A DNA stretch of 64,000 nucleotides, from NCBI GenBank assembly GCA_947630965.1, contig CANRJO010000001.1, positions 5,988 through 69,987 on the forward strand. Reading direction: 5' to 3'. Source of the DNA: an uncultured Alphaproteobacteria bacterium (lineage in GTDB: Bacteria > Pseudomonadota > Alphaproteobacteria > RF32 > CAG-239). Both the position numbers and the translations under genes were made by a program. This document shows, piece after piece, positions 3,734 through 58,355 of this stretch; within the stretch, counting starts at the first letter, position 1, and the number at the start of each line of letters is the position of its first letter. The notes beneath the pieces were generated by a model that worked only from the letters and a program-made list of their open reading frames with translations, was not told where the DNA came from and did no database searches.

Positions 3734-4188
3734 TAGTGCAAAAATCCTAAATAGTTCAAAATAAAATAAATGAGGCTGATTTGAAAAACAAGCATCAGCC
3801 AAAACATAGTTTGATAGCTTTTTTTCTTGGTTTTATGATGAAAAAACTTTTGTGCCAGATAAGCAAAAATCCAACCACCTAAGAGTTCCAAAGTATGCAG
3901 CCTTGCCTCGCTCACGCGCCAATCGCCACGCTTAGCGGCACGTTTATCAAGACCATATGCCAAAAAAGTGACGGCATTAATAGATACAAGGTGATATACA
4001 ATTAAAAGCAAAAAAGTTTTATATTGAAAAGGGGGCAGTTTGAAACAATATGTTTCTGTCAAATAAGCGGCACCCACGACAAGAGCAAAATGCAAAATAA
4101 AAAAAGGATTGCGTTGCAAAGGGCGGACAAGAACCAACAAAAGCCCCAAAACGGCTGTAAAAGTCAATATCATCTTAAAGAACCTCAA
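3733..4188 (-). CDS. DUF1294-family small membrane protein
   Basis: 151 aa, 3-4 TM. Carries the DKRAAKRGDWRVSE...GGW...FHHKT motif typical of DUF1294. Translationally coupled to the ABC exporter. Confidence 0.55.
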   Translation of the reverse strand: MRFFKMILTFTAVLGLLLVLVRPLQRNPFFILHFALVVGAAYLTETYCFKLPPFQYKTFLLLIVYHLVSINAVTFLAYGLDKRAAKRGDWRVSEARLHTLELLGGWIFAYLAQKFFHHKTKKKSYQTMFWLMLVFQISLIYFILNYLGFLH

Positions 4189-4309
4189 TTAAGCCCAACT
4201 CTATAATATTTTTTTGAAAAACGCAAATAGATAATTATATAAAAATAAAAATTGCATTTTGTGTCAATTTCGTTTATATTATCGCTAAAAGTATAAAAAT
4301 AAGGAGATT

Positions 4310-5053
4310 GTGATGAATAAAATTATAACCTTAAGTTTAACATTCTTGCTTGCTGCATGTGCCGCAAACCAAGGCGGTAACCAAGTTCGCCCGCTTTATT
4401 CTGAGCGCAATGATTTGGTTTTGGCTTACGCGAATCCGGCGCCAACCCAAACTTGTCAAAATTGTCAATGTCAAGGGCAAGGGAGTTCTTGTCAAAATTG
4501 TCAATATGTGCCAGATGCTTGCCGTGAGGTTTTGCGCCCACGCATTACCCAAATAACCATTAAGGAAACATGCCGCTCATGTCCTGTGGATAAACAAGCA
4601 ATCATTTGCGGTAATACCACATGCCCAACCTTTAAAGAAAAAGAGACGGTGCTTGAAACAAATCAGTTTACGGTACCGGCAATGCCTGAGGCGTATCGCT
4701 TGGCATCAAAACGCGCCTATGAGCGTATGGAAAGAGCAAATATGGGTTGGTGCACGCAAAAACCCGCCATATTCGTCCAATCCGCTCAAGTCTTAAGCGC
4801 TGATTTACCGGCAGGAACGGATAGCGGCGTTGCGGAGATGAAAAAACAAATTTCCGAAAGTTCAGCGTTTACGTTGTCTTCAGACGCTTCTAAAGCGGAT
4901 TACACCTTAGAAACAACAGTTGATTGGTTTGATACGCCCACAAAGCAGGTTCCCGCCATACAATACCGCGTGGTTGTTTACGATCAAAAACATAACCGTG
5001 TAGATGAATGGGTTGAAATTGTCAAATTTGCCGATAATCAAAGTTGGATCTAA
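4310..5053 (+). CDS. Lipoprotein with a Cys-rich N-terminal region (hypothetical)
   Basis: Lipobox LTFLLAAC. CxxC-type repeats CQNCQCQGQGSSCQNCQ. GTG start after AAGGAG. Confidence 0.5.
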   Translation: MMNKIITLSLTFLLAACAANQGGNQVRPLYSERNDLVLAYANPAPTQTCQNCQCQGQGSSCQNCQYVPDACREVLRPRITQITIKETCRSCPVDKQAIICGNTTCPTFKEKETVLETNQFTVPAMPEAYRLASKRAYERMERANMGWCTQKPAIFVQSAQVLSADLPAGTDSGVAEMKKQISESSAFTLSSDASKADYTLETTVDWFDTPTKQVPAIQYRVVVYDQKHNRVDEWVEIVKFADNQSWI

Positions 5054-5950
5054 ATGCGGTTTTGGGGACTATTCGTTTTTGTTTTAAGCATGGCGTTTTC
5101 AGCGGCGGCTGCGCCCAAAAACGCTGTGCTTGACATTAACGGTATGGCTTGTGAAGAGGCCTTAACCGGCGAGAGCCGCGCAGGTGCGCGTATTCGTGCA
5201 TCGGACAAGGCGGTTTTTAATGGCATCAAAAGGCAAGAAACGCTCAAGCCTTATTTTCAAGAATTAAATGATCATGACGCCAATGTTTTTATCTATCGTT
5301 TGGTAGATGAATATATTGAAGATTTATCCGTTCGGGTAATGCCCTCAACGGCAGATAACGTGTGTGTTGAAATTCGCGGGCATTTATCGGCATCGGCGGT
5401 CCAAGAAGCTTATGATGCTTTTGTAACGGAAAGAAGCACTTTCAAAGAAGTCAAACCCGAAGTGGTGGAAGAAATTGTTGAAAAAGTAGGCGAAGAAATT
5501 GCCTTAACACCGGATAATCCCACAGAGTTGGCGCTCATTTACATTGACAGCGTGCTCTTTTTTGATGGCACAAAATCGGCAAAGCAAAGTGAGGTTTTAA
5601 AGAAATTGTATGCTGATAACCCTTATTTTTACCTCACGGAAGATGCCGAAATAGCAGATTACGTGATTCGCCCGAAAGTTTTAACCGCAAAGGTAGATAA
5701 AACAGGCGCCAATCAAAATCGGTTGCACATGGTTGTCATGTTGGAAATTGAGGGGCTGACCGATGATCTTTCAGGTGAATATCAAAACCGCTATGTCCTT
5801 TTTGATGATAGTGAAGATAAACAAAACATTGCCAACAAAATGTTAGATAAGCTCCTTGAGTTAGCAGGGCAAAACCTTTTAGGTAAAATTGAAGATAACG
5901 AACAACGTAAACTGGAAAGAAAAGCGCTTGGAAGAGAGTTAAATTCCTGA
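5054..5950 (+). CDS. Secreted hypothetical protein
   Basis: Signal peptide [20 protein letters not shown]. The ATG immediately follows the stop of the upstream lipoprotein gene, suggesting an operon. Internal duplication-like segments. Confidence 0.5.
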
Positions 5951-6385
5951 TTTTTCAAGCATAAATGTTGCAGGTCCGTCATTAATAAGGCTCACTTTCA
6001 TATCAGCCTGAAACACGCCGTTTTGCACGCTTAAACCGTAGTTTTTCAAGAGTTTTGAAAAATAAAGATAAAGTTTTTGAGCGTCATCAGGTTTCGCGGC
6101 CAAATCAAACCCCGGTCGGTTACCGCGAGATAAATCAGCAGCAAGCGTAAATTGTGAAACAACCAAAATTTCGCCTGAAATATCCTGAACAGAAAGGTTC
6201 ATTTTGCCTTGCGGATCCTCAAAAATGCGCAAATCTTTCACTTTTCGTGCCAAATAGTCGGCGCATATAGGCGTATCATTTTTTTCAACCCCGATGAAGA
6301 GGAGCAGGCCTTTGCCGATGGCAGAAACAATTTGCCCGTCAACAGAAACAGAAGCTTGAGAAACGCGTTGGAGCAAAATCTTCAT
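5939..6385 (-). CDS. dtd: D-aminoacyl-tRNA deacylase
   Basis: [17 protein letters not shown]...SQFTL...GNRPGF matches the Dtd family. Start placed at M15 after a GAGG RBS. Confidence 0.85.
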
Positions 6386-6393
6386 TTGAAACC

Positions 6394-7620
6394 TCAATAA
6401 AACAGATAAGAAAGACAAATGGCACAAACAATGCCAACAACATCAGCAAACAACGCCAAAGGTAAGGCGCTGCGTGTTTTCACAATTTTAACGGCGCCAA
6501 AATAAACCGCCAAAACATAAAATGTTGTTTCTGTAGACCCCTGAATAACAGCAGCGGTAAATGCCTCAAAGCTGTCCGCGCCGTAGGTTTGCATGGCATC
6601 AATCATCATGGCGCGAGCGCCGCTGCCAGAAAGCGGCTTCATCAAAGCGGTCGGCAGAGCAGGGACAAAATCGGCATTCATCTGAAAGCTTTCAAGAGCG
6701 GAAGAAACAGCACCAAGTATCATATGAAGAACGCCACTGGCATTCAAAGCCGCAATGGCAGTAAGCATGGCAACAAGGTACGGAATAAGCCGCACAGCAA
6801 TTTCAAAGCCTTCTTTAGCGCCCTCAATGAATGTTTCGTATAAATTAAGCGAACGCCGTATGCCTGCTATGAAGAACAAAAAGATAAGAGCACAGAGAAC
6901 AAAATTCCCACAGCCGCCCGCAGCTTGCAGACGCGTCTCGGCGGGTAAATGGTAAAAGTATAAAACAATGCCACCGATAACGAGCACAAAAGATAAAAGA
7001 TATAAGAGAACAACCTTATCAAACACTTTAAGCTTTTGTACAAAGGCCGTTGCTAAAAAGCCGGCAAGGGTGGAGGCGGAAGTGGCAAGCAAAATCGGGA
7101 TAAAGACAGCAGCGGGGTTAATTGCGCCAAACTGCGCCCGATACATCAAAATAGAAATCGGCAGAACGGTCACGGCGGAGGCATTGATAACCATAAACAT
7201 AATTTGTGCGTTGGAAGCAGTATCTTTTTTGGGGTTAAGCTGTTGCATTTGCTCCATGGCTTTCAAACCCATCGGCGTAGCGGCATTATCCAATCCAAGC
7301 ATATTGGCGGCAATGTTCATTACAATGGAGCCCAAAGCGGGATGATGCGGCGGAATTTGCGGAAAAATTCGCTTAAAAAGGGGTGAAAGCGCTTTGGCAA
7401 GAAGGTCTGTTAAGCCGGACTTTTCGGCAATTTTAAGAAGCCCCAACCAAAACGCAAGCATACCTGTCAGTTGCAGGCAAAGCATAAACGCATTTTGCGC
7501 GGCGGTGGTCAGATCATTCACAAGCGTTGTCCAAATGGCAACGTCGCCACATAAACTTTGATAGCCCGCCGCGATAAAAGCAATAAGGAAAAAACTGCAC
7601 CAAATGATATTAAGCATCAA
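6394..7620 (-). CDS. Nucleoside-recognition (Gate) domain membrane protein, SpmA/SpmB-like fusion
   Basis: 408 aa polytopic membrane protein with two Gate-like halves. Confidence 0.55.
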
Positions 7621-46041: not shown

Positions 46042-48519
46042 ATGAAGAAAAATAAAATGTCAAAAATTTTGCTTGGCGTGTTAACAGCGCTGTTTGTGGG
46101 CGTTGTTGGCATGAGCGCGGCATCAGCGACAAGTTTTTATCAATCACGCTCCGTCAGTGAGATGATGGATCGTCGCCGCAATGCCGTACCTTACCAGACA
46201 ATCGGGGTGACGCAGCCTGATAGAATATTTGTATATCAAGCACCAGACGGGCAAGTACAAAGAAGCATTATTCACCCACAGTTAAGAAGAAGCGTTATTC
46301 AGCCGCGGGCAAGAAGAAACCTGTCAAAATGTGCCCAATCTCGCCAATCTCCCCAATCTCCCCAAAAACTTTGCAAACATTCGGTTGCTATGGAGCAAGT
46401 GCAACCGGTTGAGCGGGAAGTTTCCATTGAATTGGAATCCGAGCCGGAGCCTTTGATGCCAGTAGTAAAAAGAAAGCACGGCTACAAAAAGGCTGAACGT
46501 CCGCTCCCGAAGTCCAAGCCGATTGCCTTTTCAAAGCATAGAATTCCCGTTGAAGAAGACTTCGAAGAAGATTTAATGGTTCAGGATCTTGAACCTTATG
46601 AAATAAAAGACAATGAGAGCGAGATGGAGGCTTTTATTGTTAATGAGCCTGAAGAAGAGAGTGGTTGGGGGATCTTCTCTTTCCTCAAGCCTAAAAATAA
46701 AGACGGCAGTCTTTTCCCCGGAGGCGGTTGTGCAAATTGCCAAAAGAGCGGACCTTTGATTGATACGGGTCCGTGTACTTCATGCGATGACGGTCCGTTA
46801 TTGTATGCCGAACCGTGCGAATCCTGCGGCGCTTTAATTGATGATGGTCCGTGCGAAACATGTGAAGAGCCTTTGTTGTACGCAGAGCCGTGCGAATCCT
46901 GCCCGACTGTCTTAGAACCCGGCACATGCGAATCCTGCCCAACTGTCTTAGACCCCGGCACATGCGAATCCTGCCCGACGGTTTTTGAGGGTGGATCTTG
47001 CGAATCTTGTGGCAGCGTCTTAGGTGGCGGCTGTTGCGGCTGTTCTTGCCCGACCAAGGTTGAAATGCCTGACTGTTGCTCATTGGCGCCGCTTTATTTA
47101 GCGCATGTTGATTTCAACTTGGGCGATGGCGGAATAGCTCAAACCAAAGTTGGTGACTATCGGTTCCGTATTTTCGGTTGCCGTCGTTATGATCGGAACG
47201 CCGTTTTGAATCAGGGACGTGTTTTGCAAAAGAACATGGATTTTGCCAAGGTGTTTGAGCAAACAACGGGCGATTGCTATAATATTGTCAAACTCCCGGA
47301 TGACTTATGCTTACAAAAAGAGCCTTCGCCATTACCGGAATATATTTTAACGGCAGAAATTAACAACGTTTACATGGATATTTGTGACGGCTATGATTGG
47401 GATAATGCCAAAGCAAGTGGCACGCGTTCAGGTTCGGCAGAAATAACCGTTCACTGGAAGCTCTCAAACCTCACAAGAGATAAAATCTTGTGGCAGGGCA
47501 CCACCACAGGTTATGCTGACTTAAAAGATGGCGTTGAAAACGGCGAAATTCAGCTCATTGAAGACGCTTTTGCCGATGCTTCAAGCAACTTGCGTATGCT
47601 CCCCGAGTTTGAAACGCAGCTCGCCAAGCGTTTAACGCCTGAAGAGTTAACGGCTGAGCGCCAAGCCTTAATTGATGAAGAAGTGGCGCTTGATCCGGCA
47701 AAATGCAATTACAAGCCGAATTTTGATCAATGCACACCTGAGGCACCGTGCGAAGTTGTAGATGACGCATGGGCACAAACACAGGTTGTGGATACCATGT
47801 GCATCATTGATCGTCCGCCTTATGAGAGCCTGACACCTGAAAATCTTTACAAAGTCAGAGCTTCCGTTGTAGAGATTAATGCTCCAAACGGCAAGAAAGG
47901 CTCAGGGCTGATTATCAGTGAAAACTTTGTTTTAACCTCGGCGGATTTAGCCGATGATGAGGCGGAAACCGTTTGGCTCAAGACCATTAACGGCAAGAGC
48001 TTAACGGGGCGTATTGTTCGCGTCAATACCGGCAAGAACATTGCGCTGATCAAGCTTGATGAGCCCACGGATTATACGCCGCTGTCGCTGAACCTTGATC
48101 TGCCAAAAGTCAACCAAGAAGGCTTTATGGTGTTAGGTATGCTCAATGTTGATAACTTTGCCGATGGTGAAAATTACATTGACAACAAAGGTAAAGTGAC
48201 GGGCTATCGTTACAGCCAAGACAAAGGCACCGAGATCATGCTTGATACGGATGTCCAAAACATGACCATTGGTGGTGTTTTGGTGGACGAGCATGGCACA
48301 GTCAACGGTGTGGCGCACACGGGGCAAAAGACCGAAAATGGTAAAGATTTGTTCCTGCCGACTGAAACGGCGTTGCGCAGTGTTGGGCTTTCCATCTGTG
48401 AAAAGCTTTACGATAAGCCAAGCCCGTGGCAACGGACAGTATCTAAAGCCATAACGGTGAAGATTATGGACTCCAAGCCGCAAGCGCCAGAAGCTTTGCC
48501 TGTTGCAGAGCGTAAATAA
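46042..48519 (+). CDS. Secreted Cys-rich tandem-repeat protein with a C-terminal trypsin-like (S1/DegP-like) domain lacking the catalytic His and Ser
   Basis: Signal peptide. SQSPQSPQ low-complexity region. Block of CxxC repeats (PCESCPTVLEPGTCESCPTVLDPG...). C-terminal GSGLIISENFVLTSADL...NIALIKLD...IGGVLVDEHG resembles DegP blocks, but the His is replaced by Asp and GNSGGP by IGGV. 12 nt downstream of yifB. Confidence 0.55.
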   Translation: MKKNKMSKILLGVLTALFVGVVGMSAASATSFYQSRSVSEMMDRRRNAVPYQTIGVTQPDRIFVYQAPDGQVQRSIIHPQLRRSVIQPRARRNLSKCAQSRQSPQSPQKLCKHSVAMEQVQPVEREVSIELESEPEPLMPVVKRKHGYKKAERPLPKSKPIAFSKHRIPVEEDFEEDLMVQDLEPYEIKDNESEMEAFIVNEPEEESGWGIFSFLKPKNKDGSLFPGGGCANCQKSGPLIDTGPCTSCDDGPLLYAEPCESCGALIDDGPCETCEEPLLYAEPCESCPTVLEPGTCESCPTVLDPGTCESCPTVFEGGSCESCGSVLGGGCCGCSCPTKVEMPDCCSLAPLYLAHVDFNLGDGGIAQTKVGDYRFRIFGCRRYDRNAVLNQGRVLQKNMDFAKVFEQTTGDCYNIVKLPDDLCLQKEPSPLPEYILTAEINNVYMDICDGYDWDNAKASGTRSGSAEITVHWKLSNLTRDKILWQGTTTGYADLKDGVENGEIQLIEDAFADASSNLRMLPEFETQLAKRLTPEELTAERQALIDEEVALDPAKCNYKPNFDQCTPEAPCEVVDDAWAQTQVVDTMCIIDRPPYESLTPENLYKVRASVVEINAPNGKKGSGLIISENFVLTSADLADDEAETVWLKTINGKSLTGRIVRVNTGKNIALIKLDEPTDYTPLSLNLDLPKVNQEGFMVLGMLNVDNFADGENYIDNKGKVTGYRYSQDKGTEIMLDTDVQNMTIGGVLVDEHGTVNGVAHTGQKTENGKDLFLPTETALRSVGLSICEKLYDKPSPWQRTVSKAITVKIMDSKPQAPEALPVAERK
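46889..47032 (+). repeat. Four tandem 36-nt coding repeats (12-aa C-E-S-C-P-T-V-L-x-P-G-T units) inside the Cys-rich protein gene
   Basis: CCGTGCGAATCCTGCCCGACTGTCTTAGAACCCGGC and ACATGCGAATCCTGCCCAACTGTCTTAGACCCCGGC are read directly in the sequence. Two additional longer related units lie upstream (46790-46890). Confidence 0.8.
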
Positions 48520-48522
48520 ATC

Positions 48523-48552
48523 AAAGCCCCGAGTTTTCTCGGGGCTTTTTTC
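48523..48552 (+). terminator. Rho-independent terminator of the lipoprotein-yifB-Cys-rich protein operon
   Basis: AAAGCCCCGAG-TTTTC-TCGGGGCTTTTTT. Confidence 0.8.
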
Positions 48553-48649
48553 ATGGAATCAAAAACGCCCACAAAAGTGGACGTTTTTTGTTGCTTAACT
48601 AAAGCAAAAAAAAGGTACCTTAAAATTTTCTACTTGTCAAGCTCTAAAA

Positions 48650-48705
48650 CCCGCAGTTTCGCGTTGGTTAACGCGTTGCATTTAAAGGTACCTTTAAATT
48701 GCTAT
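48650..48705. repeat. Direct repeat copy X (related to 50322-50410)
   Basis: Shares GTTTCGCGTTGGTTAACGCG / AAAGGTAC / AAATTGCT blocks with copy Y. Confidence 0.5.
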
Positions 48706-48861
48706 GGTTCGACAGCCGTCGAATGTCATCCTGAACTTTGGCGCTTTAGCGCCATTCGTGAAGGATCCAGGAAAAAAGTAGCTAATTTGTTGTCCTGGAT
48801 TCTTCGGCTTCGCCTCAGAATGACGTTAAGAGGCTGTTGCAAGTTAAGAGAGGAAAAGAAA

Positions 48862-49905
48862 ATGCGATACATGATGTTTTTGTTAGGCTTGATGTTTGCA
48901 AATGTGGCAAATGCGATTGATTGTGAGAAGGTGCCGACTTGTGAAGAATTAGGTTATTCTACCGAAGATGATCCTTATTGTGCAGACAACGGTTATATGT
49001 ATTGCCCTTTAGATTATTCTTATAAAAAGTGCGTTAACTATGATTGCGCCAAAATGGGTTTTACCGATTCGGACAAAACATCGTGGTGTGGGAAGCTCAT
49101 CAAATGCAAAGGCAACGAAAGTTTCACAGCCTGTGCTTGTATTGAACCACAGCCGGAACCTTGCGCTGTCGGAAGCGTTTACTATGCCAACGGCGCATGT
49201 TCTTCTGTCGAAAAATATCAAGGTTGCGGCATACCCGTCGGTGTTGTGTATTATGTGACTGATAACGGCACTCATGGCAAGGTCATTAACTTAAAAGATT
49301 TGGGCAAAAGCGCGGGCGGTAAGTTTAATCCGGCTGATCCGTACAATAATTCTGTTTCTAAGGCTTTTGTATGGGGAATTGAAAATGATATTTCTAACCT
49401 GAAAAACTGGTATTGTAATAGCTTTAAATCTGTTGCACAAACAGAAGACAGAACGGCTGGTTTTTGGTCAGAGGGAAAAAATTATACCAATATTATTGCA
49501 AGCTATCAAAACGATGACTTGCAATATCCGGCGCCGGCAGCAAAAAAGTTTTATCCGCCGGAAGTTGAGCCGAAAAATCCGATTGTTGGGCAAGAAAAAT
49601 GGTATTTACCGACCATCGGTGAGCTTATGGACTTGTTCGGGTACGATTATCAAAACTTGGGCATAGACGTAGGTTGCGATGAGATTAACACAGGCGCAAC
49701 AGGAGAAATCAAGAAAATTGTCAATAACACTTTAAGCACGTTAAAGAATAATGGCGTGGATGCTGAAGAGCTTACCGAGAAAAAATATTCATCCTCATCA
49801 GAGTTTGATGCAAAGTACTCTTGGACACTTGATATGAAAGACGGAACAAGAACCTTCCACAGTAAGCATTACGGATTTTCTGTTCGCACAAGCCTAGCAT
49901 TTTAG
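48862..49905 (+). CDS. Secreted Cys-rich hypothetical protein
   Basis: The signal peptide MRYMMFLLGLMFANVANA begins at an internal ATG of the track ORF. The upstream part of that ORF is a leader full of repeats and terminator-like hairpins. 19 Cys. No recognisable domain. Confidence 0.55.
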   Translation: MRYMMFLLGLMFANVANAIDCEKVPTCEELGYSTEDDPYCADNGYMYCPLDYSYKKCVNYDCAKMGFTDSDKTSWCGKLIKCKGNESFTACACIEPQPEPCAVGSVYYANGACSSVEKYQGCGIPVGVVYYVTDNGTHGKVINLKDLGKSAGGKFNPADPYNNSVSKAFVWGIENDISNLKNWYCNSFKSVAQTEDRTAGFWSEGKNYTNIIASYQNDDLQYPAPAAKKFYPPEVEPKNPIVGQEKWYLPTIGELMDLFGYDYQNLGIDVGCDEINTGATGEIKKIVNNTLSTLKNNGVDAEELTEKKYSSSSEFDAKYSWTLDMKDGTRTFHSKHYGFSVRTSLAF

Positions 49906-49947
49906 AAGAAATGAGACGATTGAAACTTGCAAGGTAGCGACCTCCTC

Positions 49948-50120
49948 ATGACGTCATGCTGAACGAAGTGTAGCATCCAGGACAACAAACTCATCCATAT
50001 TGTCATTCCGAACTTGTTTCGGAATCTCGTCAAACAGATGCTGAAACGAGTTCAGCATGACGATTCGGATATTTTTCCTCCTGGATTCTTCGGCTTTCTT
50101 GCTCATAAGATGTACGTGAG
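49948..50120. repeat. Imperfect palindromic element of about 170 nt, with a central hairpin and arms related to the 48779-48826 segment
   Basis: CGTCATGCTGAAC...ATCCAGGACAACAAA on the left arm and GAGTTCAGCATGACG...TCCTGGATTCTTCGGCTTT on the right arm. Central CATTCCGAA-CTTGTTT-CGGAATC. A third, direct copy TTTGTTGTCCTGGATTCTTCGGCTTCGCC lies at 48787-48815. Confidence 0.6.
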
Positions 50121-50216
50121 GACACTTCTTTATTTTTTGCACCCAAGCCGAGGAATGCGGAGAGCGTGTGCAGATAGAGTGATTTTAAGCCCGAAAGTAC
50201 CGCAGCGCGCGAGGAT

Positions 50217-50243
50217 AAAAACAACCCCGACGGGTTGTTTTTA
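50217..50243. terminator. Terminator-like GC hairpin flanked by an A-run and a T-run (possible bidirectional terminator)
   Basis: AAAAACAACCCCGACGGGTTGTTTTT. Confidence 0.5.
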
Positions 50244-50321
50244 CCACAAGCGGCGTAGCTTTGTTAAAGTTGTGAGGAAGTGACAACAACCGATACAACT
50301 TTTACAAAGCAAGTGACCGAA

Positions 50322-50410
50322 ACGAGTTAGTTTTGCGGTTAACGCAAAGCTTACGAGTAAGACCATAAAGGTACATGAGGAAACTTTCGGGCTTGAAATT
50401 GCTCTAGGTG
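50322..50410. repeat. Direct repeat copy Y (related to 48650-48705)
   Basis: GTTTTGCGGTTAACGCA / AAAGGTAC / GAAATTGCT blocks in the same order as copy X. Confidence 0.5.
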
Positions 50411-50426
50411 CCAGCTATACGCATTC

Positions 50427-50873
50427 CTAGTAGGCAACAAGGCGGGCGGGGTTGCCTTGCAACAACATACACCTCTGCCCTGGGCTTAAAAGTGTGCCTG
50501 TTCCTTGGGTGATGGTCATCGTTTGACCACTGTCAAGTTTCACAATATATTCATAGCCACCTTGTTTGGAAAGGGCATCTTGCGCCATACCACCGGCCGC
50601 GCCGCCTAAAACCGCGCCACCTAAACCGCCCAACAAGTGCGCCGTGCTGCCGCTACCGATAGAGTAGCCCGCAATGCCACCGCCGGCAGCGCCGATAAGT
50701 GTGCCAAGCTCGTTGCCGCTCTTAACTTGAACTTGACGAACCGATAAAACGGTGCAGGGGCTTGCCGCCGAGGCTTGTCCGACAGAGCCGGTTGTATATT
50801 GATAGCTGTCAATATCTGATTGGCATGAAGCAAGCATGGCTGCCACGCCCAAGAGTGTTAAAATCTGTTTCAT
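50427..50873 (-). CDS. Glycine-zipper outer-membrane lipoprotein (SlyB / Rickettsia 17-kDa surface-antigen family)
   Basis: Lipobox AAMLASC. GxxxG glycine-zipper stretch LIGAAGGGIAGYSIGSGSTAHLLGGLGGAVLGGAAGG. Confidence 0.7.
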   Translation of the reverse strand: MKQILTLLGVAAMLASCQSDIDSYQYTTGSVGQASAASPCTVLSVRQVQVKSGNELGTLIGAAGGGIAGYSIGSGSTAHLLGGLGGAVLGGAAGGMAQDALSKQGGYEYIVKLDSGQTMTITQGTGTLLSPGQRCMLLQGNPARLVAY

Positions 50874-51010
50874 ATTCGTCCTCCAAAATTAAGATTTCAT
50901 ACCTTATAATTTATATCCATAAATTTTCTTGTCAATACTGGACATTTCGGAATAATTGTTTTATAGTACGCAAAGTTTTAAAATTTTGATAATTTTTGAG
51001 GTCAAGAAAG

Positions 51011-52399
51011 ATGTTAAAAAGAACAAAGATTGCGGCATTATTATCTTCTGCCGCGCCAATGGAAAAAGTTTTGCTCAAAGGTTGGGTGCGCACCCGCCGC
51101 GATGCGAAAGACTTCAGCTTTATTGAAGTCAATGACGGCTCCTGCTTAAAAAATATGCAAGTGATTGCTAATCAAGACCTTGAAAATTATGAAGAAATCA
51201 AAAAGCTTTCCACCGGCTCATCTGTGGCGGTTGAAGGCGCTTTAGTGCCAAGCCAAGGTGGCAATCAGAAGTTTGAAGTGAAGGCTGAAAAAATAGAAGT
51301 TTACAGCCTTGCACCGGACGATTTCCCGCTTCAAAAGAAAAAACACACGGACGAATTTTTGCGGTCTATCGCGCATTTACGCCCGCGCACCAACAAATAT
51401 GGCGCGGCGTTTCGGATTCGCTCAGAACTTTCTTTTGCGATTCACAAGTTTTTCCACGAGCGCGGTTTCCGTTATGTCCACACGCCGATTATCACGGGCG
51501 CCGACTGCGAGGGAGCGGGCGAGATGTTTCAGGTCACAACACTTGATTTGAACAATCCACCCCGCGATAAAAACGGCAAAATTGATTATACGCGTGACTT
51601 TTTCGGGAAAGAGGCGCACTTAACCGTTTCGGGGCAATTAAATGGCGAGATGTACGCCACCGCCTTGGGCGATATTTACACCTTCGGCCCCACGTTTAGA
51701 GCCGAAAACTCAAACACACAGCGCCACGCCGCCGAGTTTTGGATGATTGAGCCTGAAATGGCATTTGCCGACATTCATGATGATATGGATTTGGCAGAAG
51801 ATATGGTGCGTTATTGCGTTTTGCATATTATGGAAAACTGTGCCGAAGATTTAGAGTTGTTTGAAAAATTTGTTGACCCGACCTTAAAGCAAACGCTTGA
51901 AAACATTGCGCACAATAGCTTTGCGCGCATAACTTACACGGAAGCGATTGAAATTATGAAAAAATCGGGCAAAAAGTTTGAATATGAACCGGTTTACGGC
52001 ATTGATATGCAAACAGAACACGAGCGCTTTTTAGCGGAAGAACATTTCAAAAAGCCGGTGATTGTGCGCGATTACCCTAAAGAGATTAAGGCGTTTTATA
52101 TGCGGCTTAATGATGACGGCAAAACCGTGGCGGCGATGGATGTTTTAGTGCCGCGGATTGGCGAGCTGATTGGTGGTTCGCAACGTGAAGAGCGTTATGA
52201 TGTTTTGGTTCAAAAAATTAAAGATTTGGGCATGAACATTGCAGATTATGACTGGTACCTCGATTCGCGTAAATACGGATCCGTACCGCACGCGGGTTTT
52301 GGCTTGGGCTTTGAGCGCATGATGATGCTTGTCACGGGCATTGCGAACATTCGCGATGTTTTGCCTTTCCCGCGGACCCCGAAATCAATCAATTTTTAG
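51011..52399 (+). CDS. asnS: Asparaginyl-tRNA synthetase
   Basis: Class II aaRS motifs. N-terminal OB fold. FRAE motif 2 and GLGFERMMM motif 3. Start at MLKRTK (ATG) rather than the upstream TTG. Confidence 0.88.
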
Positions 52400-52408
52400 G
52401 AGAAAAAG

Positions 52409-52933
52409 ATGTTGTTCAAATTGGCTTTGGCGACTTTTATCATTGCTTTGCCCCTCGGTGCGCACGCGGAGGAACAGCCTGCGTTTGAGGCGCTTCCGAG
52501 TGTTTCGGACACGTCTTTTGAAAACCCCGATGAAGCCTTGGGAAAGGCGGAAGAAATTACCATGCCGTTATGCGATGACGCCAAGCTTTATCAAAAAATC
52601 TTGGGTGAGGTGCGCGCTTTTTTAACAAGTGACGGCGAAATTTCCGTGATGGCCAAACGCCGCAACGCGCTGATTGGCGCCAACATTGAGGGCTTTGAAG
52701 AAATCCCTGTCGCAAATTTTTCACCCGAAACGGATAATAACACGGCAAACGCCTTGATAACACTTAAAATCAATCAAAAAGTGAGAGAGGAAGACATCAG
52801 ACTTTGCCGCCAAAAGGGCGAGGGGAATTTGTATGTCATTTTGTACCCGTATCAAGATAATGTTAAAGGGCACATCATTAACTTGAACCGTTATGACACC
52901 ACCAATGAGGGCGTGAGTTTTATTTATCCTTAG
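52409..52933 (+). CDS. Secreted hypothetical protein
   Basis: Signal peptide MLFKLALATFIIALPLGAHA. 10 nt downstream of asnS. Confidence 0.4.
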   Translation: MLFKLALATFIIALPLGAHAEEQPAFEALPSVSDTSFENPDEALGKAEEITMPLCDDAKLYQKILGEVRAFLTSDGEISVMAKRRNALIGANIEGFEEIPVANFSPETDNNTANALITLKINQKVREEDIRLCRQKGEGNLYVILYPYQDNVKGHIINLNRYDTTNEGVSFIYP

Positions 52934-52988
52934 GGGTTGATTTTTTGAAAAAATTTATCTAAATCTTACAAAGAGGATAAGTTGAAGA

Positions 52989-53888
52989 ATGAGCGAAAAT
53001 AAGAATTTAGTTGTCATAAAGCCGCAGAGCAATTTACCTGCCGTCATAGATGAGGGCGGGCTATATTCTTATTTGGAGCAAATTAAGAAGTTTCCGGTTT
53101 TAACACAGGAAGAAGAAGATTCTTTAATAACGGATTTCAAACATAATGGCAATTTGCAGGCGGCGCAAAAGCTCATTACATCGCATTTACGTTTGGCAGC
53201 AAAAATTGCTTTAACATACAAGCGTTACGGTTTGCCGATGTCGGATATCATTTCGGAAGCAAACATCGGGTTGATGCAGGCGGTAAAAAAGTTTGATGAA
53301 AACAAAAAAGTCCGCTTGGCAACATATGCCATGTGGTGGATTAAGGCGGCGATTCATGATTATATTTTACGCTCTTGGTCTTTGGTCAAAATTGGCACGG
53401 TTGCGGCGCAGAAGAAGCTTTTTTATAATTTAGGGCGCATTAAGGCGCGCTTGGGGCTTTATGAAAACAAAGAGTTGGAGCCAAAAGTGGTCAAGCAGAT
53501 TGCGGGCGAGTTGGTGGTTGATGAAAAGGACGTTGTGGAGATGAACCGCCGTCTGGCAGGCGATTCGTCGTTGAATACCGCTGTTTACACCGGCGATGAT
53601 GAAAGCAAAGAAAAAATAGATATGCTAGCTGATAGCCGCCAAAACATAGAAGCGCGCTTGGCAAACAAGCAAGAAGCGGAATATAAGCGGCAAATTTTGC
53701 TTTCATGCTTAAAAACCTTGAATGAGCGCGAACAATATGTGCTTAAAAACCGCATGATGACCGAAAACCCGCAAACGCTTGATGAAATTGGCGAAAAATT
53801 TCAAATCAGCCGTGAGCGCGTGCGCCAGATTGAAAAACGTGCTTTTGAAAAACTTTCCGAACAGGTCAAAGCAAAAATAGCGGCTTAA
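52989..53888 (+). CDS. rpoH: RNA polymerase sigma-32 (heat-shock sigma factor)
   Basis: Sigma-70 regions 2-4 with an RpoH box-like QKKLFYNLGRIK. 299 aa. Confidence 0.88.
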   Translation: MSENKNLVVIKPQSNLPAVIDEGGLYSYLEQIKKFPVLTQEEEDSLITDFKHNGNLQAAQKLITSHLRLAAKIALTYKRYGLPMSDIISEANIGLMQAVKKFDENKKVRLATYAMWWIKAAIHDYILRSWSLVKIGTVAAQKKLFYNLGRIKARLGLYENKELEPKVVKQIAGELVVDEKDVVEMNRRLAGDSSLNTAVYTGDDESKEKIDMLADSRQNIEARLANKQEAEYKRQILLSCLKTLNEREQYVLKNRMMTENPQTLDEIGEKFQISRERVRQIEKRAFEKLSEQVKAKIAA

Positions 53889-53893
53889 GGGAA

Positions 53894-54697
53894 ATGGATT
53901 TCGATTCTTTAATTCAAAAATTAAGTACGGCGGGCATCGAGTCGCCCCGCTTGGAAGCTAGGCTTTTGAAAGAAAATGCCTCTGACGAAAAAAAACTTGA
54001 ACAAATGCTTCAGGCGCGCTTAAAACATCAGCCGTTAGATAAAATTTTAGGTCGGAAAGAGTTTTATAAATACACTTTTAAAGTAAATGCCGATGTCTTA
54101 TCGCCCCGTCCTGATACGGAAACATTGGTGGAAGCCGCCGCAAAGCTTATTGAGCAAAATAAAATTAAAAACATTTTGGAGTTAGGTGTTGGCTCAGGGT
54201 GCATCTTGCTTTCATTGTTGGCAGATTTTCCCAATTTAAAAGGCAAGGGCATTGATAGAAGCGCTTCGGCACTAAAAATTGCGGCGGAAAATGCAAAATG
54301 TTTGGGCGTTGAAAGCCGTTGCTCTTTGCAAGAGGCGGATTGGTTTGACGAAGCGTTTATAAATCAAATCGGGGGTGGTTTTGAGATGGTTGTTTCTAAC
54401 CCGCCTTACATCCCGCACCACGAAATTGAAACTTTGGAAACAGAAGTTAAAAAATATGATCCTTGGCTTGCTTTAGACGGCGGTCTTGACGGTCTTGAAA
54501 GTTATCGACGCATTGCAGATTTAGCCCCGAAGCTTGTCAAAGATGGTGGCTTTTTGCTTTTAGAAGCAGGAGTTCATCAGGCGGCGGATATCATCAAGAT
54601 CATATGTTCAAAGGGGCTGCAACATTTCAAAACCGAGAAAGATTTAAGTGGCATTGAAAGGTGTATAATTTTTCAAAAAAGGGGTTGCAATTTATAA
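53894..54697 (+). CDS. prmC: Release-factor glutamine N5-methyltransferase PrmC/HemK
   Basis: SAM motif LELGVGSGCI and the catalytic NPPY motif (VVSNPPYIP). Confidence 0.8.
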   Translation: MDFDSLIQKLSTAGIESPRLEARLLKENASDEKKLEQMLQARLKHQPLDKILGRKEFYKYTFKVNADVLSPRPDTETLVEAAAKLIEQNKIKNILELGVGSGCILLSLLADFPNLKGKGIDRSASALKIAAENAKCLGVESRCSLQEADWFDEAFINQIGGGFEMVVSNPPYIPHHEIETLETEVKKYDPWLALDGGLDGLESYRRIADLAPKLVKDGGFLLLEAGVHQAADIIKIICSKGLQHFKTEKDLSGIERCIIFQKRGCNL

Positions 54698-54815
54698 AGA
54701 AGGGTATATTATCCCTAATTGTTGCACAGAATGTTTTTTGTTTGATGCACTTTTTTCCGTTTAATTGTTTTTAGTTTTAACTCGAGCATTTTGCTTAAAT
54801 AATGGTTGTATAAAT

Positions 54816-55313
54816 ATGAAAAAAAATAACAAGTTTCGTGGTGGCGGAAGCAATACTTTTTCGCTCAATTATAAATTTGACAGTGTCAGTCCCGCCGGTA
54901 AATATAACGGCACCGCGCTTGATCTGATCAAGCGTTACAATGATTTAGCCAAAGAAGCCCACAGCATGGGCGATTTTGTGGAAATGGAAGTATTCCGTCA
55001 ATATGCGGAGCATTACCGCAAGGTTGTCACCGAGATTAACGAACGGCGCGGCTTTAAGCCGGAAAATCAGGCACAAAACGAAAAAGCTGAAGCACCGGTT
55101 GAACAAAAAGCGCCGGAAACATCTGCGGCGCAAAGTGTTTCGGAGCCTGTTTCAGTGCCTGCTTCAGAGCCTGTTCCGGAAGCACCGAAACCGCAGAAAA
55201 AATCGTTTAAGGTCATAGAGCTTTCATCTGCTGCGGCAGCGGAAGCCCCAACGCCCGAAAAGCCCAAACGCGCACCGCGCCGTAAGGCTCAAGCTGAAGA
55301 AACGGCTGTCTAA
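54816..55313 (+). CDS. DUF4167-like protein (basic N-terminus, Ala/Pro/Glu-rich tail)
   Basis: MKKNNKFRGGGSN...YNDLAKEAHSMGDFVEMEVFRQYAEHYRKV resembles the alphaproteobacterial DUF4167 core. Start moved to this Met. Confidence 0.5.
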   Translation: MKKNNKFRGGGSNTFSLNYKFDSVSPAGKYNGTALDLIKRYNDLAKEAHSMGDFVEMEVFRQYAEHYRKVVTEINERRGFKPENQAQNEKAEAPVEQKAPETSAAQSVSEPVSVPASEPVPEAPKPQKKSFKVIELSSAAAAEAPTPEKPKRAPRRKAQAEETAV

Positions 55314-55327
55314 AAACGAGGTGCATC

Positions 55328-56452
55328 ATGGCTTTTATGCTTGCCTTTTTGATTGTAACGGTTTCCTGTATTGCCATTACATATAAAATTATGGCAGGTT
55401 ACAGCGGTTTCCCCGTGGCAATGCGTTTAATTGTTTTGTTGCTCTTAACAGTGGCGTGGTTTGGGCCGTTTATTTTGCGCTTTATTAAAAATCAGGGCTT
55501 CATAGCGTCTTCCATATATCCGCTTTTATCCAAAGTGAGCTATTTTTTCATGGGCTTTGCTTTTATTGTGATGATGCTTTTGGTGCTGCGTGAAGTGGTC
55601 TGGTACATTGTTTATTTCATTGCACGCAAGCCAAGCCTCAGTCCGGATAATGTGGCACTTTTAAATAAGTTAAATATCGGGGTGTTGGTTTTAGGATTTG
55701 TTATTTCTCTTTATAGTGTATGGGAAGCCAACAAAACGCCCGCCGTTCGCACCTTAAAAATTGAAGATCCGCGGATTACGGAAAACACAAAGCTTGTGGT
55801 TGCCTCTGATTTTCATATTGATCAGGCAACCCCGATGTTCCAAATTCGGCAGATTATAGATTTAATCAATGCGCAAAACCCTGATTATGTTTTGCTTGTG
55901 GGTGATATTGTTGACGGTACACCGGAGGAATTGGGCAGTAAAATTGATGAGCTCAAAAACTTAAAAGCCAAAAGAGTATATGTGAGTTTGGGTAATCACG
56001 AATTTTATCATGGGCACGCGAAGTGGATGATCAAATTTACCAAAATGGGCTTTGAAGTGTTGCATAATACGGGCACGGCCATAGGTGAAACGGGCATTTT
56101 CTTAGGTGGTGTGCCTGACGCAAATTCAGCAAAGGTTAATTTGAATTTTGCGGCGTATGGTTCCAAGCCCGATCAATACAAAATTTTGCTCTCGCACGCA
56201 CCAACAGTTGCCGAAAGCTTGGCAGCAGGCGAGTTTGACTTGCAGCTTTCAGGTCATACGCACGGCGGGCAGATTTTCCCGTTTCATTATTTTGCCAAAC
56301 AGTCTAATAACAACCATTTAGCCGGCAAATATACAGTTAACGGCAACACGTTGTTCATCACGCGTGGTGCCGGTTATTGGGGGCCACCGATGCGCCTTTT
56401 TGCCCCGTCTGACATCACGGTTGTAGAGTTAAGCGGAAAAAATAATGACTAA
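55328..56452 (+). CDS. Membrane-anchored calcineurin-like metallophosphoesterase
   Basis: 4 N-terminal TM helices followed by the MPE motifs DFHID, GDIVDG, GNHE and GHTHGG. Confidence 0.7.
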   Translation: MAFMLAFLIVTVSCIAITYKIMAGYSGFPVAMRLIVLLLLTVAWFGPFILRFIKNQGFIASSIYPLLSKVSYFFMGFAFIVMMLLVLREVVWYIVYFIARKPSLSPDNVALLNKLNIGVLVLGFVISLYSVWEANKTPAVRTLKIEDPRITENTKLVVASDFHIDQATPMFQIRQIIDLINAQNPDYVLLVGDIVDGTPEELGSKIDELKNLKAKRVYVSLGNHEFYHGHAKWMIKFTKMGFEVLHNTGTAIGETGIFLGGVPDANSAKVNLNFAAYGSKPDQYKILLSHAPTVAESLAAGEFDLQLSGHTHGGQIFPFHYFAKQSNNNHLAGKYTVNGNTLFITRGAGYWGPPMRLFAPSDITVVELSGKNND

Positions 56453-56906
56453 AAGACAAGTCCAGGTTTTAGACTGTGATGTTTTTATACCCGGCTTCCA
56501 TGCGGAAATAAAAGCAAAAATGCAAAAGTTTGAGCAGATGATTAACTCGGCAGATGAAAATTTAGCTGAAGAGTTGATTGCACCGGAAGCATCTTTTTCA
56601 ACACCCGCCGCGAAGGAGCTTTTGTATGGCGCAAAAGGTTATTTATCGGTTGTGCATTGGATGCGCAGTGGTTTTAGTGATGTCCAATGGCATGCTCAAG
56701 AGATGATTGCCGAGGGCAACAAAGTGGCGGTGCGTTGGGTTTTAACCGGCACGCACGATGGTGTCTTTTTGGGCAAAAAGCCGACTGGTGTGAAAATAAA
56801 AACCACAGTCATGAATTTTTACACGTTTAATCAAGAGGGCAAAATCACACAAGATATTGCCGCTGAAGGCATGATTGGGATTTTAAAACCCCTAGGCCTG
56901 TGCTGA
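56445..56906 (+). CDS. SnoaL-like / ester cyclase (NTF2-fold) protein
   Basis: 153 aa. Ester-cyclase family pattern (WHAQEMIAEGNKVAVRW...GTHDGVFLG). Start overlaps the upstream stop. Confidence 0.55.
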   Translation: MTKRQVQVLDCDVFIPGFHAEIKAKMQKFEQMINSADENLAEELIAPEASFSTPAAKELLYGAKGYLSVVHWMRSGFSDVQWHAQEMIAEGNKVAVRWVLTGTHDGVFLGKKPTGVKIKTTVMNFYTFNQEGKITQDIAAEGMIGILKPLGLC

Positions 56907-56912
56907 AAAACG

Positions 56913-57287
56913 TTAATAACAAGCGTTGCCGTCATATTTCCAATTCACGACATAGCCGTTTTGAAGTGAAAAAGTAACGTCGCAAAACCTGTTCACAAGA
57001 TAACCGCCGCGGGTTGTTGTGGTGGCCTGCATATAGGGTGAAAAGCCGTCAAACGAGGTTATCTGCGTTTGAGGGGTAACATACAGCTTTTGATCTGTAT
57101 AGAGCAAAAGCTTAACATTATTGACCTGATACGTTTTTTGCGGAATGCCCAAAGTCTGCACAAGTTCTGCCTCTGACATACCGAGCATGGTGTTATATTT
57201 TGTTTCAAAACGTGTTTTCGGAAGCATAAAATGCCCACAGGCGCTTAAAACGATGAGCCCGAAAGGTAAAAAGAAAATTTTTTTCAT
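56913..57287 (-). CDS. Small hypothetical lipoprotein
   Basis: Lipobox LIVLSAC. Confidence 0.4.
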   Translation of the reverse strand: MKKIFFLPFGLIVLSACGHFMLPKTRFETKYNTMLGMSEAELVQTLGIPQKTYQVNNVKLLLYTDQKLYVTPQTQITSFDGFSPYMQATTTTRGGYLVNRFCDVTFSLQNGYVVNWKYDGNACY

Positions 57288-57460
57288 GTTTTCTCCTCAA
57301 AATCTGAATTAAATTTAAGGCAATAGCGTTAAAATTCAATTAAAAGCCGAGATTTTGGCAAAAAAATTTATTTTTGTCATTTTTTACTTGCATGAGGGAT
57401 AAAAATGTGATATAAAGAAAATATTCAAGTATTATTTTAACTATTAAAAAATTTATAATT

Positions 57461-57823
57461 ATGAGTAAAAAAACAGTCGTATCGTTGGAAAACATCAATA
57501 TGATGATTCTTTCTGAAAAAGTAAACAACGCAATTGAAGCCAATGCTCTTTCGGCACAAGAAACCCAAGCTCGTTTGGTGCAGATGTGCCTCCGGCATGA
57601 CATACATCACTTCCCCAAAAACATTCCGTTTGTTGCGGTTGTGCGTCATTGTGCAGATGGTAAGAGTGTTGTTTATAATGTCAAACGTTCAAAGATAGCC
57701 GTCATTGATCAAGACAGTATCTCTTCGGAGACAAACATCGGCAAGCGGTTCAAAATCGGAGGCGTGGACTACATCTTGAAAGATACAATCAACGGTTTTC
57801 CGCGTTATGCACCAAGATTTTAA
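57461..57823 (+). CDS. Hypothetical protein
   Basis: 120 aa with no motif. Followed by a strong terminator. Confidence 0.35.
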   Translation: MSKKTVVSLENINMMILSEKVNNAIEANALSAQETQARLVQMCLRHDIHHFPKNIPFVAVVRHCADGKSVVYNVKRSKIAVIDQDSISSETNIGKRFKIGGVDYILKDTINGFPRYAPRF

Positions 57824-57855
57824 CACAACGTATATGATGATTGGTTGAGTTGATA

Positions 57856-57883
57856 AAAACCTCGCTTGAAGCGAGGTTTTTTG
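57856..57883. terminator. Bidirectional Rho-independent terminator
   Basis: AAAACCTCGC-TTGAA-GCGAGGTTTTTT. Lies between convergent genes. Confidence 0.8.
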
Positions 57884-57887
57884 CGTT

Positions 57888-58355
57888 TTAAACCACAATG
57901 TGCTTCAAAATATGCTCAAGCACCTCTGGAGCAGATTGTTTAAAATCTATGGATATGCCTGTGCTTTGACAACTTTGGGAGCGGTTATTATAAAGGCAAA
58001 AAGGCGTTTCAAATGTTTCGCCATAAAGAGGCGAATCATCAATATGGAAAGCAATGCCTTCTTTAAGACAAAATTGAGCTTTTGCCTTATTCCAAAGATC
58101 GTCATCAACCTTAAAAGAGCCGTCTGCCAAAAAAGAAACCTTATGTTGCGCATCATAAAAGTCCAGGATGGAAAAAATTTCAGAATAGGGAATTTTTTGC
58201 GCCAAAAGATATTTTTGAATTTCCGCTTTGCGCCCGCCGCTCAAAATATAAATGCGAATACCTTTTTGCAAAGCAAGGGTATTAAATTCTCTAAAAAAAG
58301 CGGGATTATCGGTAATCACTCCATGGTAATCTATGCCGATTTTAAGGTTCATCAT
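57888..58355 (-). CDS. HAD-superfamily (5'-nucleotidase-like) small hydrolase, tentative
   Basis: An N-terminal IDYHGVI stretch where HAD motif I (DxDGT) is expected. About 155 aa. Weak assignment. Confidence 0.4.
   Translation of the reverse strand: MMNLKIGIDYHGVITDNPAFFREFNTLALQKGIRIYILSGGRKAEIQKYLLAQKIPYSEIFSILDFYDAQHKVSFLADGSFKVDDDLWNKAKAQFCLKEGIAFHIDDSPLYGETFETPFCLYNNRSQSCQSTGISIDFKQSAPEVLEHILKHIVV

Follow-up and report, generated by a model that had tools for sequence, protein, structure and literature searches.

What is the role of a short palindromic motif that occurs twice ahead of a gene for a secreted protein, and how would that gene be expressed? The question is raised by the gene at 48862-49905 in a stretch of 64,000 nucleotides (the window) from an uncultured gut alphaproteobacterium (GenBank assembly GCA_947630965.1, contig CANRJO010000001.1). 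An earlier note, made from the letters alone, had taken the locus for an inserted or recombining cassette in which the gene is bounded by two direct repeats of about 70 nt, copy X upstream and copy Y downstream. Our analysis suggests a different answer, namely that the interval 48597-48709 is probably an invertible promoter (an inverton), which would act as a phase-variation switch for the downstream lectin-like protein.

Results

The duplicated motif that the earlier note had reported is indeed present. Its two copies, AAAGGTACCTT at 48611-48622 and 48684-48695, are the centres of an inverted repeat (IR) whose 30-nt arms are 80% complementary and enclose 53 nt, and the segment between them is thus flanked by an IR pair (Table 1). 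With up to one mismatch allowed, the 12-mer occurs at these two sites only in the 64 kb, against 0.16 occurrences expected. What had been called copy X is the interior of this element together with its right arm, and the strings that were quoted for X and Y are found roughly where they had been placed. The duplicated AAAGGTACC motif probably identifies the two arms of a short promoter segment that can flip.

The putative promoter is of the sigma-70 type. Its -35 hexamer TTGACA, a perfect match, is the complement of 48635-48640, and after a 17-nt spacer the -10 hexamer TACCTT, the complement of 48612-48617, lies within the IR core. The promoter is directed leftward and has the gene at 48862-49905 behind it; we infer both this promoter and, from its direction, that the window shows the OFF state. 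About 25 nt downstream of it lies the minus-strand terminator at 48561-48589, which would insulate the promoter in that state. The terminator hairpin of the upstream gene, at 48523-48548, has A-tracts and T-tracts on both sides and could act in both directions. These are the two terminator-like hairpins of the long leader described before, and that description is borne out, the upstream intergenic region being 342 nt long. In the consensus scan no plus-strand promoter appeared between 48520 and 48862. A rightward candidate in the present orientation (TTGCAT followed by 17-18 nt) was rejected; no TAnnnT -10 follows it and the arrangement is not conserved.

For comparison we fetched contigs that encode six paralogs of the protein. 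These contigs belong to one sample set and have similar coverage (3-4x), on which basis they probably come from one organism. In them the whole unit, consisting of terminator hairpin, left arm, TTGACA-bearing interior and right arm, precedes family genes at 10 distinct places, at least 9 paralogs being concerned, with the hairpin immediately to the left of the element in nine of the ten copies. The spacing from core to core is 73 nt, or 84-85 nt in a second class, and across the two otherwise dissimilar classes of interior (67 nt and 78 nt) the arrangement TTGACA-N17-TACC(T/C)T is kept in all 10 copies. Many dispersed copies that share GGTACC-core arms, here at 10 places or more, would fit an Mpi-like invertase regulon.

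Related elements occur further afield. The arrangement of -35 and -10 is also kept in L002, from the metagenome-assembled genome (MAG) GCA_947588655.1, where a similar design has a variant core of the ACGTAC type, and it is found in L015 as TTGATT-N17-TACCTT. In GCA_017464685.1, a family member that is 38% identical to the window protein (P0084) has an analogous IR pair with the core CGATCG. Taken at face value, these sequences suggest that the switch design is retained while the recognition core changes among lineages. More remote forms, in which genes for other signal-peptide proteins are preceded by GGTACC-core pairs, occur in alphaproteobacterial MAGs from buffalo rumen and mouse gut, and the mouse-gut copy has a -35-like hexamer, 17 nt and then TACCTT. 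A scan of a genome collection with the exact IR pattern, a collection that apparently leaves the genome of the window outside, gave 15 matches, three of which are relevant (L012, L015 and L016). Its matches in Firmicutes (L007, L008, L009 and L017, from Listeria, Lacrimispora, Robinsoniella and Clostridiales) consist of AAAGGTACCTTA, 60-65 nt with TTGACA, and AAGGTACCTTT; they may be due to chance or to an unrelated regulatory palindrome. Scans of JGI metagenomes by DNA pattern and by protein profile came back essentially empty, and the 64-kb window holds no paralog and no additional inverton copy.

Orientation of the element at paralogous loci

Upstream of the paralog P0010, on contig L004, the interior is opposite in orientation, with TTGACA facing the gene, while upstream of the close paralog P0009, on L022, it lies as in the window. 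The left context, the 5' untranslated region (UTR) and the gene start of these two loci are homologous and collinear; with the interior alone reverse-complemented, the two align globally with a score of 286 instead of 203, and their interiors become nearly identical. Similarly, the window interior is 85-93% identical to paralog copies of the same orientation, and 82-85% identical to the L004 copies only as the reverse complement. A second copy on L004 shares 29 of 30 nt of its left flank with the window and has an inverted interior; this orphan copy has a terminator-like right flank too, and hence it is less informative. Since the breakpoints lie exactly at the palindromic cores, the difference between the paralogous loci is best explained by site-specific inversion rather than by insertion of a whole element in reverse.

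Several observations weigh against a working switch. The -10 hexamer TACCTT fits the consensus at only three of six positions (TAnnnT); because of this the consensus promoter scan did not call it, and the promoter assignment is therefore our own reading. Both orientations are seen between paralogous loci, but within each single locus the 2-4 low-coverage assemblies agree and the opposite orientation was not found: the window locus is identical in three assemblies, and the P0009, P0005, P0075 and P0078 loci each keep one orientation across 2-4 assemblies. This agreement is weakly informative, the assemblies being shallow (3-4x) and possibly derived from one clone. Moreover, nearly all gene-associated copies have the same (OFF) orientation, as a fixed, non-switching element would show, and no member of the protein cluster has a different N-terminal extension of the kind that a flipped assembly would produce. 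Finally, no recombinase was found in the 64-kb window (Pfam scans of 30 open reading frames, ORFs, with no Resolvase or Phage_integrase match, and a recombinase motif scan) or, by Pfam annotation and the motif scan, in the fetched family loci, which agrees with the earlier statement that the window has no integrase or transposase; our reading assumes an enzyme that acts in trans. Two contigs that end inside the element (L026 and L028) begin in the same orientation, so their breaks are repeat-induced.

Could the element instead be a small mobile or duplicated promoter cassette with terminal inverted repeats, similar to a miniature inverted-repeat transposable element (MITE), which landed or was copied either way round and is now fixed without any switching? 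The invariance of orientation between assemblies at each locus and the lack of a recombinase nearby are what such a cassette would show. The whole unit, arms included, is moreover a dispersed repeat of ~125 nt amid other repeats of the MITE or repetitive extragenic palindromic (REP) kind, and one copy on L004 stands as an orphan between convergent genes. However, the first copy on L004 is reversed only between its GGTACC cores, with the homologous 5' UTR and gene collinear with those of the paralog, whereas insertion of a whole element would have reversed the arms too and would not have left breakpoints exactly at the cores. The constant order of terminator, element, leader and family gene also fits duplication together with the gene better than independent insertion, and a promoter aimed at a terminator in at least eight copies makes little sense unless it can be flipped. 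We therefore regard a fixed cassette of this kind as unlikely.

A different possibility is that a dimeric transcription factor binds the two AAAGGTACCTTT palindromes as static operators, whose distance of 73 bp, or seven helical turns, would serve DNA looping; in that case the promoter would be fixed and the L004 flip would be an old rearrangement. It is true that each arm is palindromic in itself (TTTAAAGGTACCTTTAAA), that the spacing is a constant 73 bp in one class, and that orientation is invariant within a locus. But the sole good promoter match is directed at a terminator and not at the gene, the second class of interior has a spacing of 84-85 bp, which is out of helical phase, and the arms are as long as 25-30 nt, with the interior of a paralog flipped precisely at the cores. 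Static operators thus strike us as quite improbable, and an invertible promoter is the reading that we carry forward.

Some copies of the switch are arranged in ways that deserve separate mention. Contig L004 has three copies (those at 2499-2577 and 4116-4205 among them). One is the orphan, which has a terminator on either side and stands where two family genes converge. A minus-strand gene of 425 aa, which shares only the Cys-rich N-terminal module with the family, is preceded by the copy of the 84-nt class. Recombination between the cores of different L004 copies could invert or delete whole genes. On L038 (1232-1840) a copy in the OFF orientation stands ahead of an ORF of 127 aa that matches nothing of the family but its C-terminal Lcl_C part; this ORF is probably a truncated pseudogene that has retained its switch. 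At the P0078 locus (L042 3691-3862; also L043-L045) the inner half of the right arm resembles the "outer-left" arm (CCATAGCAATTTTAA-GGTACC-CTTTTTTT), as though copies had swapped arms with one another, and a third ACGTACC-like site follows 81 nt further on.

The gene and its product

The ORF at 48862-49905 does carry a signal peptide, as had been reported, of the Sec type and with the cleavage site MRYMMFLLGLMFANVANA/IDC. Its product has 15 Cys rather than the 19 given before (an over-extended ORF of 450 aa has 21), and 10 of them lie within the first 100 residues, in an N-terminal Cys-rich module that is highly conserved in the family. We found ~107 homologues, nearly all of them MAG or metagenome entries labelled Alphaproteobacteria, with several paralogs sharing contigs. 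An alignment of 38 homologues displays the conserved Cys-rich N-terminus, then a hypervariable middle, and toward the C-terminus another conserved part that bears the motif W-Y-L-P-x-x-G-E-L. All 38 share the start Met at 48862 together with the signal peptide, and therefore the deposited 450-aa ORF, which starts at 48553, over-extends through the switch. In the public protein sets (P0001, P0230) the first 103 codons of this ORF run across the switch with its inverted repeats and on through the REP-like leader. The database annotation can thus be corrected: the 450-aa ORF is an artefact and the real start is 48862.

The view that the protein has no recognisable domain did not survive. Pfam Lcl_C (PF07603) matches it with E=9.9e-7, at 29.5 bits and so below the gathering cut-off of 34.9, and many homologues carry a precomputed PF07603 annotation. 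A confident AlphaFold2 model built from the family alignment (predicted local distance difference test, pLDDT, 88.8) was matched by Foldseek to 4eps (E=1.9e-6), the Bacteroides ovatus fimbrial protein BACOVA_04982, and to 8q4e (E=1.6e-3), the C-terminal domain of Legionella Lcl, both with probability 1.00 and with C-type lectin domains lower in the list; a profile search of PDB sequences gave 8q4e as well, at E=0.0055. In this model the C-terminal ~240 residues take the same fold as Lcl_C/DUF1566 proteins. The window protein differs from those proteins in scoring under the Pfam gathering threshold, in having no diversity-generating retroelement (DGR) nearby, and in its Cys-rich N-terminal module, which is common to ~400-aa proteins with other C-termini.

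Among DGR target domains in human microbiomes, DUF1566 is the most frequent (PMC4159848). For the window gene we found no DGR features: its 3' end is not repeated elsewhere in the window, and the 30 ORFs scanned include no reverse transcriptase (RT). A DGR does target the distant family member P0084, next to which lie an RT and a bAvd gene. There a template repeat (TR) at ~5605-5725 matches the 3' end of the gene (~5030-5146) as a textbook pair of template and variable repeat, and all mismatches fall at TR adenines. Together, the prevalence of DUF1566 among DGR targets and the case of P0084 indicate that the family would be a variable ligand-binding scaffold, a typical cargo of phase variation. 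The proposed on/off switch probably acts on a secreted lectin-like protein of this family.

Repeats and base composition of the locus

The direct repeats of about 70 nt, on which the idea of a cassette was built, are not supported. The best local alignment of X with Y, in which AGTTTCGCGTTGGTTAACGC pairs with AGTTTTGC, a three-position gap and GGTTAACGC, covers 17/20 nt. Its score is matched by a fraction 0.005 of shuffles, and among all 111-nt pieces of the window 0.8% fit X as well as Y does, which is chance level because the pair was picked by eye out of 64 kb. MAFFT does not align X and Y in the manner proposed. Copy Y is a mosaic of other dispersed repeats, and its core is not an inverton arm. 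It lies within the palindromic element at 50150-50428, with its "GAAATTGCT" end in the right terminal inverted repeat of that element, and the stretch 50270-50362 matches L002 2899-2990. The arms of the 50150-50428 element recur near family genes in L002, L025/27 and L042-45, and the element may be a MITE.

The locus had also been called GC-rich and repeat-dense. The second half of this description stands, with palindromes dense on both sides of the gene; the first fails, since 48553-50426 has a GC content of 0.422 and the window as a whole one of 0.425, which puts the locus at the 43rd percentile of stretches of the same size. The gene itself is if anything AT-richer, with a GC content at third codon positions of 0.41 compared with 0.45-0.54 for its immediate neighbours (0.38 for prmC further downstream). 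The palindromic element in the leader and the block at 49950-50098 are both REP/MITE-like and recur around family genes in both orientations; the leader element is optional, being absent from the L025 paralog. Rfam recognised no known RNA family, either in the whole window at gathering thresholds or in 48450-50500 at E<=1, where the sub-threshold matches were terminator-like only. No tRNA or tmRNA able to serve as an att site was found.

Genomic context

Upstream of the element, the block of rpsF-rpsR-rplI, a small ORF, ComM and the trypsin-like protease is conserved in two relatives (L046 and L047, with 50-60% protein identity). Downstream of the orthologous protease, L046 and L047 have no family gene and the whole neighbourhood differs: the protease is followed by ApaG in one relative, and in the other by an outer membrane protein and then directly the YhdP-hydrolase-PrfB block. 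Comparison of window positions 48500-58300 with L047 8196-14196 (GCA_947588655.1) places YhdP-hydrolase-PrfB almost directly after the trypsin-like protease in L047, while in the window ~10 kb lie between the protease and the YhdP block, including the family gene, a glycine-zipper lipoprotein, AsnS, RpoH and PrmC. On account of this ~10-kb difference the switch and its gene sit at a synteny breakpoint. Family copies elsewhere, in the genomes of L046 and L047 and in others, occupy unrelated housekeeping sites. With relatives that lack the gene here and copies at unrelated sites, the gene-plus-switch unit is therefore not syntenic. This non-synteny is the one part of the inserted-cassette idea that finds some support, although relatives this distant are weak evidence for a recent insertion. 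In the upstream protein of 825 aa (46042-48519) a Trypsin_2 domain is accompanied by a Cys/Pro-rich segment built of repeats (CESCPTVL...), and >1000 homologues of this protein occur in gut Alphaproteobacteria-like MAGs.

The earlier model, with X and Y as att-like direct repeats around an inserted or replaceable gene, can draw on the gene's absence from the equivalent site in two relatives, its slightly AT-richer composition, and some paralog loci (L004, L022-24, L038) where two directly oriented inverton copies stand on either side of a family gene, but with X/Y similarity at chance level, Y part of unrelated repeats, no integrase, no GC anomaly, and relatives so distant that no empty site with common boundaries can be defined, it is largely refuted and we consider it very improbable. 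What remains of it is the notion of a recombination target: the duplicated AAAGGTACCT does look like a site for site-specific recombination, but it suits inversion of a 67-bp promoter segment and not insertion or replacement of a gene.

Table 1. Features of the locus and of the P0084 locus, with positions in the window unless a locus is named.
Feature	Position	Strand	Remarks
Terminator hairpin of the upstream trypsin-like protease gene	48523..48548		11-bp stem, 7 GC pairs
Second hairpin, AAAAACGCCCAC-AAAA-GTGGACGTTTTTT	48561..48589	minus	reads as a good intrinsic terminator
Left inverted repeat arm (IRL)	48597..48626		palindromic core GGTACC at 48614-48619
Putative sigma-70-type promoter	48612..48640	minus	read from sequence
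Proposed invertible interior between GGTACC cores	48620..48686		67 bp; small hairpin 48660-48675
Right inverted repeat arm (IRR)	48680..48709		core GGTACC at 48687-48692
Nested palindromic REP/MITE-like element in the 5' leader	48725..48824		copies in L002, L022-24, L038, L040, both orientations
Ribosome-binding region GAGAGGAAAAG	48848..48858	plus	4 nt upstream of ATG
Gene for 347-aa secreted protein	48862..49905	plus	signal peptide, Cys-rich N-terminus, variable middle, predicted Lcl_C/DUF1566 C-type-lectin-like fold
Downstream block of REP-like palindromes	49950..50098		related to the leader element
Separate ~280-bp palindromic element	50150..50428		terminal inverted repeats 46-49 nt (50150-50198, 50383-50428); terminator-like hairpin 50217-50242
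Core of copy Y	50313..50364		member of dispersed repeat GTGACCGAAGCGAGTTAGTTTTGCGATTAACGCAAAACTTACGAGCAAG; twice in L002, also L003/L004
IR pair upstream of P0084	L033 3848-3957		palindromic core ACTTTAAACGATCGTTTAAAGTCC twice, ~60 nt apart
P0084 DGR locus	L033 4001-7450		GCA_017464685.1, JAFTYO010000052.1; RT 5769-7103, bAvd 7106-7450

Discussion

How would such a switch work? Because TTGACA lies 17 nt from the TACCTT of the repeat core, the -35 would always be paired with a -10 borne by an arm, so in either orientation of the segment it would join the -10 that the adjacent arm supplies. In the present state the promoter would run leftward straight into the terminator at 48561-48589, read-through from the upstream gene would be blocked by that gene's own terminator, and with no other promoter-like site before it the gene would be OFF. 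A site-specific recombinase encoded elsewhere would recombine the two cores and flip the segment. After the flip the right arm would supply the -10 TACCTT for rightward transcription toward the gene, which would start at ~48700 and pass through the REP-containing leader into 48862-49905.

The likely outcome would be a repertoire of variable surface or secreted ligand-binding proteins of which one or a few are ON and many OFF. More generally, and as a tentative proposal about which we are ourselves doubtful, an uncultured lineage of gut and rumen Alphaproteobacteria may practise a genome-wide antigenic variation, in which a single trans-acting invertase flips a dozen or more promoters of 67-78 bp with the -10 in the recombination core, one of many Cys-rich lectin-like paralogs is ON while the others are OFF, and DGR hypermutation is layered on top in some lineages. 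Probable promoter inversion here and a DGR in a relative, both bearing on one family, suggest strong diversifying pressure, from host immunity or from phages.

A working switch would mean that lectin-like proteins, whether secreted or on the surface, are varied in these organisms through promoter inversion. Invertons are well known in Bacteroidales and in some enterobacteria, while the host-associated uncultured Alphaproteobacteria of gut and rumen are almost unstudied. The IR motif is compact and easy to recognise (AAAGGTACCTTT, 73 nt, AAAGGTACCTTT), and with it ON and OFF states could be counted directly in metagenomic reads.

Comparison with known systems

The proposed switch resembles fimS of E. 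coli (type 1 fimbriae) and the hin/H system of Salmonella in that a promoter segment inverted between short IRs would turn a surface structure ON or OFF. The fimS segment measures 314 bp and has 9-bp IRs, and that of hin is ~1 kb. Both are single loci with their recombinase genes adjacent, whereas here the segment is 67-78 bp long, the arms are 25-30 nt, the copies are many and no recombinase gene adjoins them.

The resemblance to the fin regions and PS loci of Bacteroides fragilis, which are served by the serine recombinase Mpi, goes further. There, too, many short, dispersed, IR-flanked promoter segments with one IR consensus lie upstream of genes for surface molecules. The Mpi-type IR consensus, which we take to be ARACGTWCGT, resembles the AAACGTACGT core in L002. 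The recombinase need not adjoin its targets: master invertases of B. fragilis (Mpi and others) each control many dispersed and distant promoters (PMC4747536). Copies are also often OFF in assemblies; for one B. fragilis invertible promoter, each of the three sequenced genomes shows the OFF state (PMC3090145). The differences lie in the host, which here is an uncultured gut alphaproteobacterium and not a member of Bacteroidales; in the cargo, here a family of single-gene lectin-like proteins and there polysaccharide operons; and in the promoter, which here would be sigma-70-like (TTGACA) instead of the -33/-7 type of Bacteroides. Moreover, the -10 lies inside the repeat core, so that the promoter would be assembled across the recombination site. 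As read from these elements, a -10 that forms part of the recombination core would be one small twist on a known design.

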